Below are positions 54,852 through 59,739 of a stretch of DNA of 64,000 bases, piece after piece; the stretch's first letter is position 1; every line of letters begins with the position of its first letter. Under the pieces are notes generated by a model, which was not told the DNA's origin, did not search any database, and saw only the letters and a list, made by a program, of their open reading frames with translations. Source of the stretch: Escherichia coli (lineage in GTDB: Bacteria; Pseudomonadota; Gammaproteobacteria; Enterobacterales; Enterobacteriaceae). The stretch lies in the NCBI RefSeq assembly GCF_030013595.1, contig NZ_CP122768.1; one strand, 5' to 3'. A program made the position numbers and the translations under genes.

Positions 54852-54944
54852 GGTGAGGTGGCCGAGAGGCTGAAGGCGCTCCCCTGCTAAGGGAGTATGC
54901 GGTCAAAAGCTGCATCCGGGGTTCGAATCCCCGCCTCACCGCCA
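54852..54944 (+). tRNA. serV: tRNA-Ser (anticodon GCU), 93 nt including CCA
   Basis: Cloverleaf with long variable arm; anticodon loop cuGCUaa; ends ...ccgcctcaccgcca. Confidence 0.93.
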
Positions 54945-54947
54945 TTT

Positions 54948-55024
54948 GCATCCGTAGCTCAGCTGGATAGAGTACTCGGCTACGAACCGAGCGGTCGGAG
55001 GTTCGAATCCTCCCGGATGCACCA
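54948..55024 (+). tRNA. tRNA-Arg (anticodon ACG), 77 nt, copy 1
   Basis: gcatccgtagctcagctggatagagtactcggctACGaaccgagcggtcggaggttcgaatcctcccggatgcacca; 3 nt after tRNA-Ser. Confidence 0.93.
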
Positions 55025-55139
55025 TATTCTACGTACTTTCAGCGATGAAGGTATAGAAGAGGTGGCGGTAATAACCGCAGGCACCAGGGAGGATAACGTT
55101 GCTTTAGCAACGGCCCGAAGGGCGAGCCGCAAGGCGAGT

Positions 55140-55158
55140 AATCCTCCCGGATGCACCA
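55140..55158 (+). other. 19-nt 3'-terminal fragment of tRNA-Arg (aatcctcccggatgcacca) in the long spacer
   Basis: Exact match to the last 19 nt of the intact copies; upstream sequence diverges. Confidence 0.7.
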
Positions 55159-55222
55159 TCTCTTACTTGATACGGCTTTAGTAGCGGTATCAAAAAATCT
55201 GCAGTAAAGTAAGTTTCCCGAT

Positions 55223-55299
55223 GCATCCGTAGCTCAGCTGGATAGAGTACTCGGCTACGAACCGAGCGGTCGGAGGTTCGAATCCTCCCGGATGCACCA
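55223..55299 (+). tRNA. tRNA-Arg (anticodon ACG), 77 nt, copy 2
   Basis: Identical to copy 1. Confidence 0.93.
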
Positions 55300-55401
55300 T
55301 ATTCTCCGTAATCATCAGTGATGATGGTTAAGATGGATTTTCTTATTTGATATGGCTTTAGTAGCGGTATCAATATCAGCAGTAAAATAAGTTTTCCCGA
55401 T

Positions 55402-55478
55402 GCATCCGTAGCTCAGCTGGATAGAGTACTCGGCTACGAACCGAGCGGTCGGAGGTTCGAATCCTCCCGGATGCACCA
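55402..55478 (+). tRNA. tRNA-Arg (anticodon ACG), 77 nt, copy 3
   Basis: Identical to copy 1. Confidence 0.93.
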
Positions 55479-56724: not shown

Positions 56725-58308
<1,584 letters not shown>

Positions 58309-58316
58309 CAGAAAAG

Positions 58317-58389
58317 AAAAAGGCCACTCGTGAGTGGCCAAAATTTCATCTCTGAATTCAGGGATGATGATAACAAATGCGCGTCTTTC
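58317..58389 (-). ncRNA. micA: MicA (SraD) Hfq-dependent small RNA, ~73 nt
   Basis: Reverse strand reads GAAAGACGCGCATTTGTTATCATCATCCCTGAATTCAGAGATGAAATTTTGGCCACTCACGAGTGGCCTTTTT, ending in a terminator hairpin (58322-58339) plus U-run; sits between gshA and luxS. Confidence 0.9.
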
Positions 58390-58395
58390 ATATAC

Positions 58396-58422
58396 TCAGA
58401 CTCGCCTGGGAAGAAAGAGTTC
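58396..58422 (-). promoter_or_regulatory. Sigma-E type promoter of micA (-35 GAACTC, 16-bp spacer, -10 TCTGA)
   Basis: Reverse strand reads gaactc-N16-tctga-gtatat then the MicA 5' end at 58389. Confidence 0.7.
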
Positions 58423-58457
58423 AGAAAATTTTTAAAAAAATTACCGGAGGTGGCTAA

Positions 58458-58973
58458 ATGCCGTTGTTAGATAGCTTCACAGTCGATCATACCCGGATGG
58501 AAGCGCCTGCAGTTCGGGTGGCGAAAACAATGAACACCCCGCATGGCGACGCAATCACCGTGTTCGATCTGCGCTTCTGCGTGCCGAACAAAGAAGTGAT
58601 GCCAGAAAGAGGGATCCATACCCTGGAGCACCTGTTTGCTGGTTTTATGCGTAACCATCTTAACGGTAATGGCGTAGAGATTATCGATATCTCGCCAATG
58701 GGCTGCCGCACCGGTTTTTATATGAGTCTGATTGGTACGCCAGATGAGCAGCGTGTCGCTGATGCCTGGAAAGCGGCAATGGAGGACGTGCTGAAAGTGC
58801 AGGATCAGAATCAGATCCCGGAACTGAACGTCTACCAGTGTGGCACTTACCAGATGCACTCGTTGCAGGAAGCGCAGGATATTGCGCGTAGCATTCTGGA
58901 ACGTGACGTACGCATCAACAGCAACGAAGAGCTGGCGCTACCGAAAGAGAAGTTGCAGGAACTGCACATCTAG
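58458..58973 (+). CDS. luxS: S-ribosylhomocysteine lyase LuxS (AI-2 synthase)
   Basis: 171-aa [43 protein letters not shown]... with HxxEH metal motif. Confidence 0.96.
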
Positions 58974-59009
58974 TCAGTAAACTATCTTCACAATTAATTG
59001 AATAAATAT

Positions 59010-59033
59010 CCTCCGGCATAGCCGGAGGTTTTT
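59010..59033 (+). repeat. Subterminal hairpin at the tnpA-distal end of the IS200-like element (cctccggcatagccggagg + ttttt)
   Basis: 19-nt palindrome; 14/19 identity and same architecture as the hairpin at 59681-59699. Confidence 0.6.
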
Positions 59034-59109
59034 CAAATGCGCCTATAAGGCTCTCTTACCAGCCGCGCCCTAACAGGCGCACACGATCTGACATTTGCAT
59101 CCAACTTCG

Positions 59110-59568
59110 TTACTTACGGCCCGTAAACGGGCTGCCCGGATAGGGAATCGATAACTGATCTCCCATTTTATCCTCTTCAAGCTGGTGCTTTATGTAATCC
59201 TGTATCTTCGCCGTGTTCTTACCCACTGTATCGACGTAGTACCCTCTGCACCAGAACTCCCTGTTCCTGTATTTGAATTTCAAATCACCAAACTGCTCGT
59301 AAAGCATCAGACTGCTTTTCCCTTTCAGATATCCCATAAACCCGGATACGCTCATTTTGGGCGGGATCTCCACAAGCATATGGATATGATCTGCACAGCA
59401 TTCAGCTTCCAGAATCCGTACGCTTTTCCACTCACACAGCTTTCTCAAAATACTGCCTATTGCTCTACGCTTCTCTCTGTAGAACACCTGTCTTCGGTAT
59501 TTTGGCGCAAAAACTATGTGATATTTACAGTTCCATCGGGTGTGCGCTAAGCTCTTTTCGTTCCCCAT
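59110..59568 (-). CDS. tnpA: IS200-type transposase TnpA (HuH single-strand transposase), 152 aa
   Basis: MGNEKSLAHTRWNCKYHIVFAPKYRR...CCADHIHMLVEIPPK...YVDTVGKN (HuH and catalytic Tyr region); the track ORF is extended 17 codons. Confidence 0.92.
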   Translation of the reverse strand: MGNEKSLAHTRWNCKYHIVFAPKYRRQVFYREKRRAIGSILRKLCEWKSVRILEAECCADHIHMLVEIPPKMSVSGFMGYLKGKSSLMLYEQFGDLKFKYRNREFWCRGYYVDTVGKNTAKIQDYIKHQLEEDKMGDQLSIPYPGSPFTGRK

Positions 59569-59573
59569 TGGGA

Positions 59574-59643
59574 CCCCCTTTTGATTTCTTGTTTGACACT
59601 TGCAGTTGCCAGACCGCAAGGTGTTTTAACAAATCAAAAGGGG
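59574..59643 (-). promoter_or_regulatory. Long imperfect stem-loop in the tnpA leader that pairs with the Shine-Dalgarno sequence
   Basis: cccccttttgattt (59574-59587) pairs with aaatcaaaagggg (59631-59643); the tnpA Shine-Dalgarno lies in the 3' arm, as described for IS200. Confidence 0.6.
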
Positions 59644-59680
59644 TTTTAATAACTGGCTCAAAGCTGAAAGCTTTCCGGAA

Positions 59681-59704
59681 CCCCCAGCCTAGCTGGGGGT
59701 TTTC
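59681..59704 (+). repeat. Subterminal hairpin at the tnpA-proximal end of the IS200-like element (cccccagcctagctggggg + tttt)
   Basis: 19-nt palindrome matching the other end hairpin in architecture. Confidence 0.6.
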
Positions 59705-59711
59705 TGTGCAC

Positions 59712-59739
59712 AAAAAAGCCAGTTCAAATGAACTGGCTT
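59712..59739 (-). terminator. Intrinsic terminator of emrB
   Basis: Reverse strand: stem aagccagttc/gaactggctt followed by a U-run, 8 nt after the emrB stop. Confidence 0.7.

Follow-up and report, generated by a model that had tools for sequence, protein, structure and literature searches.

MicA, also named SraD, has been under study since 2001. Transcription of micA depends strictly on sigma-E, and envelope stress and stationary phase both induce it (PMC1804206; Johansen 2006 and Udekwu & Wagner 2007, via PMC4618604), and sigma-E dependence has been shown for both the E. coli and the Salmonella gene (PMC1804206; PMC4618604). A transcript of about 70 nt has been directly reported, and the RNA represses ompA, ompX, lamB, phoPQ and other targets through antisense pairing followed by mRNA decay (PMC4618604). 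Pairing by the MicA 5' region is experimental (Udekwu 2005; Rasmussen 2005; both cited in PMC4618604), and regulation of both ompA and phoP has been validated with compensatory mutations (PMC4618604). On the RNA itself, Hfq protects a six-nucleotide region between the two hairpins (PMC4618604, citing Rasmussen 2005) and probably binds the U tail as well (PMC4618604). The same logic is found in RybB and MicL: a short RNA that binds Hfq is transcribed from a sigma-E promoter, and with its 5' end it represses mRNAs for outer-membrane proteins (OMPs) or lipoproteins (PMC1804206; PMC4618604). These two RNAs differ from MicA in that their sequences are unrelated, they occupy other loci (rybB lies between ybjK and ybjL) and they have other target sets; moreover, unlike MicA, neither is antisense to the leader of a neighbouring gene.

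The window analysed here, a 64-kb stretch of E. coli DNA, carries between gshA and luxS an element that is almost certainly micA, the gene for the 73-nt Hfq-dependent sRNA MicA (SraD), together with a sigma-E-type promoter (Table 1). The element is already known, being MicA itself and not a MicA relative, and no feature of the sequence speaks against this identification. The RNA sequence, read on the minus strand from 58389 to 58317, is GAAAGACGCGCAUUUGUUAUCAUCAUCCCUGAAUUCAGAGAUGAAAUUUUGGCCACUCACGAGUGGCCUUUUU. A scan of the whole window against Rfam at the gathering threshold, which had been named as the check when MicA was originally predicted on the reverse strand at this site, returned a full-length match to the MicA model (RF00078; 58389 to 58318, minus strand; model positions 1-75 of 75) scoring 83.9 bits where the gathering score is 41 (E 1.4e-11); the same whole-window Rfam scan gave no match to RybB or MicL. 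Alignment of window positions 58290-58470 to E. coli K-12 MG1655 (NC_000913.3) showed 100% identity, and the curated K-12 ncRNA micA (b4442, 'small regulatory RNA MicA', NC_000913.3 2814802-2814874) is equivalent to window 58389 to 58317. In both genomes micA is placed between luxS and gshA on the strand opposite to both, according to the curated annotation for K-12 and, for the flanking genes of the window, the ORF list; here 8 nt separate the end of the gshA stop codon from the micA 3' end, and luxS, which is divergent, has its start codon 69 nt upstream of the micA +1.

Table 1. Features of the gshA-micA-luxS interval, in window coordinates.
Feature	Coordinates	Strand	Basis
gshA (glutamate-cysteine ligase)	56752..58308	+	ORF list; annotation of identical DNA
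Long luxS 5'UTR from the sigma-S-type promoter P1	58126..58457	+	transcription start from PMC2956633
micA (MicA/SraD sRNA), 73 nt	58317..58389	-	full-length match to Rfam RF00078; 100% identity to K-12 b4442
micA 3' end, within U-run	58321-58317	-	
Rho-independent terminator, 7-bp stem GGCCACU/AGUGGCC, loop CACG, U5 tail	58317..58339	-	terminator scan, fold
A/U-rich single-stranded linker AAUUUU	58340..58345	-	unpaired in Rfam structure and MFE fold
Stem-loop 1, nt 23-44, UCAUC-C-CUG AAUU CAG-A-GAUGA	58346..58367	-	MFE fold, Rfam structure
5' target-pairing region, MicA nt 1-24, mostly single-stranded	58366..58389	-	unpaired in Rfam consensus
micA +1 (G)	58389	-	
GTATAT, 6 nt between -10 box and +1	58395-58390	-	
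-10 box TCTGA (gTCTGA)	58396..58400	-	sequence and cross-species conservation
Promoter spacer TTTCTTCCCAGGCGAG, 16 nt	58416-58401	-	
-35 box GAACTC (within tGAACTCTT)	58417..58422	-	sequence and cross-species conservation
A/T-rich tract TAATTTTTTTAAAAATTTT, upstream of the -35 box	58424..58442	-	sequence
luxS (S-ribosylhomocysteine lyase)	58458..58973	+	ORF list; annotation

Comparison with K-12 reveals the same RNA, promoter, flanking genes, strands, fold and predicted pairing with ompA and phoP, with 100% identity across the whole gshA-luxS spacer and no difference within the micA element. Differences fall outside it: across gshA-micA-luxS there are 27 substitutions relative to K-12, all of them coding (in gshA and luxS) and none within 58190-58672, and an IS200C element is inserted downstream of luxS. 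When positions 58200-58560 were used as a megablast query, the region was found in 5423 of 5426 complete E. coli genomes, always on the chromosome and with a median of one copy per genome. As a discovery, this ordinary, reference-identical copy of micA carries no weight. Its use is as a control, in which an sRNA, an alternative-sigma promoter and a terminator were recognised from raw sequence with base-exact coordinates.

Homologues were collected by an exact-match scan with MicA nt 5-27, taking one genome per species, which gave at least 120 loci in Escherichia, Salmonella, Citrobacter, Enterobacter, Kosakonia, Pantoea, Erwinia, Tatumella, Serratia, Rahnella, Yersinia, Hafnia, Edwardsiella and other genera. 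Because nt 5-27 served as the search pattern, conservation of this segment (the 5' region and the 5' arm of stem 1) is circular in this set and was not used as evidence. In tblastn searches with the GshA and LuxS of the window, 110 of 120 loci among the matches listed showed micA between the two genes and on the strand opposite to them, and in the remaining 10 of these matches the locus end falls before one of the neighbours. Across the loci among the matches listed, the luxS start lies 68-180 nt upstream and the gshA stop 81-100 nt downstream of the micA +1, while the RNA measures 71-78 nt, mostly 73, 74, 75 or 72. The arrangement of micA antisense to luxS is kept in all of the approximately 116 Enterobacterales loci among the matches listed that have luxS in range.

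Some length variation was seen in the CAUCAUC tract, in which one Erwinia, one Siccibacter, one Pantoea and a further species carry 3-5 extra bases (ATC, TCATC or TCAAT) at the 3' edge of the target-pairing region (homologue alignment columns 28-32). The added bases look like a short repeat expansion, and repeat variation of such a kind in MicA is mentioned in a review (PMC4618604).

The promoter follows the layout tGAACTC-N16-TCTGA-N6-G, which fits sigma-E criteria (a GGAACTT-like -35 box, a TCTGA- or TCAAA-like -10 box, a spacer of about 16 nt and a start 5-7 nt after the -10 box) and agrees in boxes and spacing with the GAACTC-N16-TCTGA promoter that had been predicted to lie at the correct distance. 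The boxes also match the classical rpoH P3/degP form, GAACTT-N16-TCTGA. The sigma-E consensus given by Papenfort et al., with which the boxes agree, is GGAACTTTT at -35 and GTCAAA at -10 (PMC1804206). On both strands of the 64-kb window the pattern GAACT-N17-TCTGA occurs a single time, against a chance mean of 0.02 and with any match at all in only 2 of 100 dinucleotide shuffles. For comparison across about 115 Enterobacterales species, the 99 upstream sequences that are distinct among the matches listed were stacked on +1 without alignment. Positions A-32, A-31, C-30, T-11, C-10, A-7 and T-1 are invariant in these 99 sequences among the matches listed, T-27, T-26 and T-9 are conserved at 99% and G-12 at 93%, and none of the spacer positions -24 to -17 exceeds 0.41 bits. 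No indels fall between the boxes and +1 in this set, also among the matches listed, so that the box spacing is fixed; boxes that stay conserved at a constant distance, with free variation in the spacer between them, mark a functional promoter. In the A/T-rich tract that precedes the -35 box, T-45, A-41, A-40 and A-36 are conserved at 81-93% in the same 99 sequences among the matches listed, and the tract is a possible UP-like element. On the plus strand these same bases make up the AU-rich part of the luxS leader immediately 5' of the luxS Shine-Dalgarno (SD) sequence.

The RNA itself folds as expected for MicA, the 73-mer reaching a minimum free energy (MFE) of -20.5 kcal/mol (z = -2.98) that none of 200 dinucleotide shuffles equalled in stability. 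The terminator hairpin, part of the original prediction, was recovered by both the terminator scan and the fold at 58339-58322 (7 bp, 5 of them G-C pairs, around a 4-nt loop), with UUUUU at 58321-58317; the sequence after the hairpin is TTTTTCTTTT, and at the micA site the simple scan called a terminator on the minus strand only. Both the AAUUUU linker and the U5 tail are present here, and Hfq binding is experimental for the identical RNA (PMC4618604). Counting the pairs of the Rfam structure in 81 distinct MicA RNAs among the matches listed showed 99.0% of them to be base-paired, compared with 28-52% when the 3' partners were slid by 1-3 columns. In these 81 homologues among the matches listed, 97-99.7% of cells are paired in stem-loop 1, which has one compensatory GC-to-AU change at its loop-closing pair, and 99.5% are paired in the terminator stem, whose innermost pair shows a compensatory exchange between AU and UA in 5 sequences including the E. 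coli type. Six of the 7 terminator pairs and 3 of the 4 outer pairs of stem 1 never change among the 81 homologues from the matches listed. Such near-invariance of the RNA leaves little covariation to support the stems, and covariation adds only weakly to the support for the structure beyond conservation.

Salmonella MicA, represented by the aligned S. enterica subsp. arizonae homologue, shares the locus, promoter boxes, 5' region and architecture. It differs in having a UUUU loop where the window has AAUU, in carrying CAGUGAUG in the 3' arm of stem 1 and in a terminator loop with one extra nucleotide; the window carries the E. coli form of the RNA.

For target pairing, the ompA and phoP leader sequences of K-12 were used with a 26-nt query from the MicA 5' region. 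In silico, MicA nt 8-24 pair with ompA positions -21 to -6, covering the SD sequence, at -23.1 kcal/mol, a value as good as which was reached by none of 1000 shuffled 26-mers, and nt 4-15 pair with the phoP start codon region at -17.5 kcal/mol, a value that 13 of 1000 shuffles equalled or bettered. Duplexes of full-length MicA with the same two leaders had given meaningless long-range structures with huge internal loops, and the 26-nt 5' region was used in their place. Because the DNA is identical to that of K-12, we infer that sigma-E control, Hfq binding and target regulation in this strain would be as they are there. According to the literature on the identical K-12 sequence, envelope stress would release sigma-E and so switch on micA transcription. 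The 5' region of MicA, together with Hfq, would then pair with the translation-initiation regions of ompA, phoP, ompX, lamB and other mRNAs, as in K-12. Such pairing would block ribosome binding and promote mRNA decay, and the load of outer-membrane proteins would be lowered, again by analogy with K-12. In cis, MicA would also be expected to pair with long luxS transcripts and to lead to their processing by RNase III, as the K-12 literature describes.

This last step follows from the position of micA, which, being antisense inside the long luxS 5'UTR, can act in cis on long luxS transcripts. Transcription of luxS from the sigma-S-type promoter P1 begins at a G that precedes the AUG by 332 nt, and the long 5'UTR takes in the entire gshA-luxS spacer on the plus strand (PMC2956633). 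In the window this start corresponds to 58126, where the base is indeed G, preceded by TCTATGATT. Both micA and its promoter lie entirely within the DNA of this leader, on the opposite strand, and the long leader is thus fully complementary to MicA. Taken together, micA and its core promoter account for 106 nt of the 149-nt gshA-luxS spacer, and the remainder holds the luxS SD sequence and the A/T-rich tract; with the plus strand serving as luxS 5'UTR (PMC2956633), the intergenic sequence is as functionally dense as had been supposed.

The alternative that fares best among those considered is that MicA acts primarily as a cis-antisense regulator of luxS, through RNase III cleavage of duplexes between MicA and the luxS 5'UTR or through interference by converging transcription, and not as a trans-acting repressor of OMP mRNAs. 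The nesting of micA wholly within the long leader (P1 at 58126, luxS AUG at 58458), the antisense arrangement in every species locus with luxS in range among the matches listed, and the reported processing of luxS mRNA to a shorter species in a manner dependent on both MicA and RNase III (PMC2956633) all speak for such a role. Over-expression of MicA, however, leaves LuxS protein unchanged (PMC2956633), the invariant MicA 5' region is complementary to unlinked targets, and the compensatory mutations mentioned above validate regulation of ompA and phoP (PMC4618604). As a replacement for trans repression, regulation of luxS in cis is therefore improbable, and it is better seen as additional to the trans role of MicA.

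A related proposal, which we regard as doubtful, if somewhat less so than a primarily cis-acting MicA, is that selection acts on the very position of micA and its sigma-E promoter, nested antisense in the luxS leader. Were this position selected, there would be a physical link from envelope stress to luxS/AI-2 output, either via RNase III processing or via collision of converging transcription. A link between envelope stress and luxS was raised by Udekwu in 2010.

A candidate proximal luxS promoter on the plus strand was also considered, in the form of a sigma-70-like match (ATGATA-18-TATACT, 58367-58396) inside micA and its promoter. It was rejected because the consensus scan near micA shows no enrichment (1 match against 2.0 expected by chance) and because its predicted start, at about 58403, disagrees with the published proximal luxS 5' end at about 58375-58376, which overlaps MicA by 14-15 nt (PMC2956633). 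The match is probably meaningless.

Far less credible is the reading in which the hairpin serves only as the terminator of gshA and the rest of the interval is luxS promoter or leader DNA with no RNA of its own. The hairpin does begin 14 nt past the gshA stop codon; on the plus strand, however, it is followed by AAAATTTCATC, which contains no T-run, and a terminator was called on the minus strand only. The conserved sigma-E promoter and the covariance-model match likewise both lie on the minus strand, and the transcript of about 70 nt has been seen directly (PMC4618604), so that this explanation retains scarcely any probability.

Equally close to being dismissed outright is a small protein encoded by the micA stretch, for although a mechanical 48-aa ORF with an ATG exists (58391-58245, minus strand, beginning MKDAHLLSSSLNSEMKFWPL...), it was rejected as coding on the grounds that its ATG lies 2 nt upstream of the conserved +1 and hence off the transcript, that it has no SD sequence and the -10 box occupies that place, that the terminator cuts it at about codon 24, that homologue RNA lengths among the matches listed differ by non-multiples of 3 and leave no conserved frame, and that it continues into the antisense strand of gshA.

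The element had also been described as invisible in the ORF track. This holds in spirit, but the spurious 48-aa ORF does appear in a mechanical ORF list. Two PGAP-annotated RefSeq E. coli records, NZ_CP025842.1 and NZ_CM149870.1, contain DNA identical to window 58309-58457 and list only gshA and luxS there, without a micA feature. Compared with these PGAP records, only the curated K-12 record annotates micA, and routine PGAP annotation of E. coli genomes omits the gene.

Elsewhere in the window, the IS200C insertion, of about 0.7 kb, occupies approximately 59004-59712 in the luxS-emrB interval. K-12 lacks it; other E. coli genomes have IS200C annotated at the same luxS-emrB site. The product of its tnpA (59110-59568, minus strand) is a Y1 transposase of 152 aa (Pfam PF01797, E 3.9e-38). 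The hairpin that follows luxS towards emrB in K-12, AAGCCAGTTCAAATGAACTGGCTT, has been moved to 59716-59739, and luxS is now followed by the IS end hairpin at 59010-59028; IS200C could further alter the luxS 3' end in this strain. The element also bears on the statement that MicA was the only sRNA identifiable with confidence, which needs a small correction, a second Rfam sRNA family, STnc490, having a full-length match of 146 bits inside IS200C (59701-59578, minus strand). STnc490/art200 is the IS200 antisense RNA, about 90 nt long and antisense to the tnpA 5'UTR (PMC4513863). The Rfam match lies on the tnpA-sense strand and comprises the IS200 left-end terminator hairpin and the tnpA 5'UTR stem-loop; given that art200 is described as antisense (PMC4513863), the strand of the match is not to be taken as that of the sRNA.

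A tRNA cluster lies further upstream in the window, at 54852-55478. ARAGORN placed an extra 'tRNA-Arg(tcg)' at 54968-55039 on the minus strand, and its overlap with a plus-strand tRNA gene suggests that it is not a real gene. The cluster consists of serV (Ser-GCU) followed by three identical tRNA-Arg(ACG) genes at 54948, 55223 and 55402, compared with the four of K-12 (argV, argY, argZ and argQ), and one tRNA-Arg repeat unit appears to have been lost in this strain.
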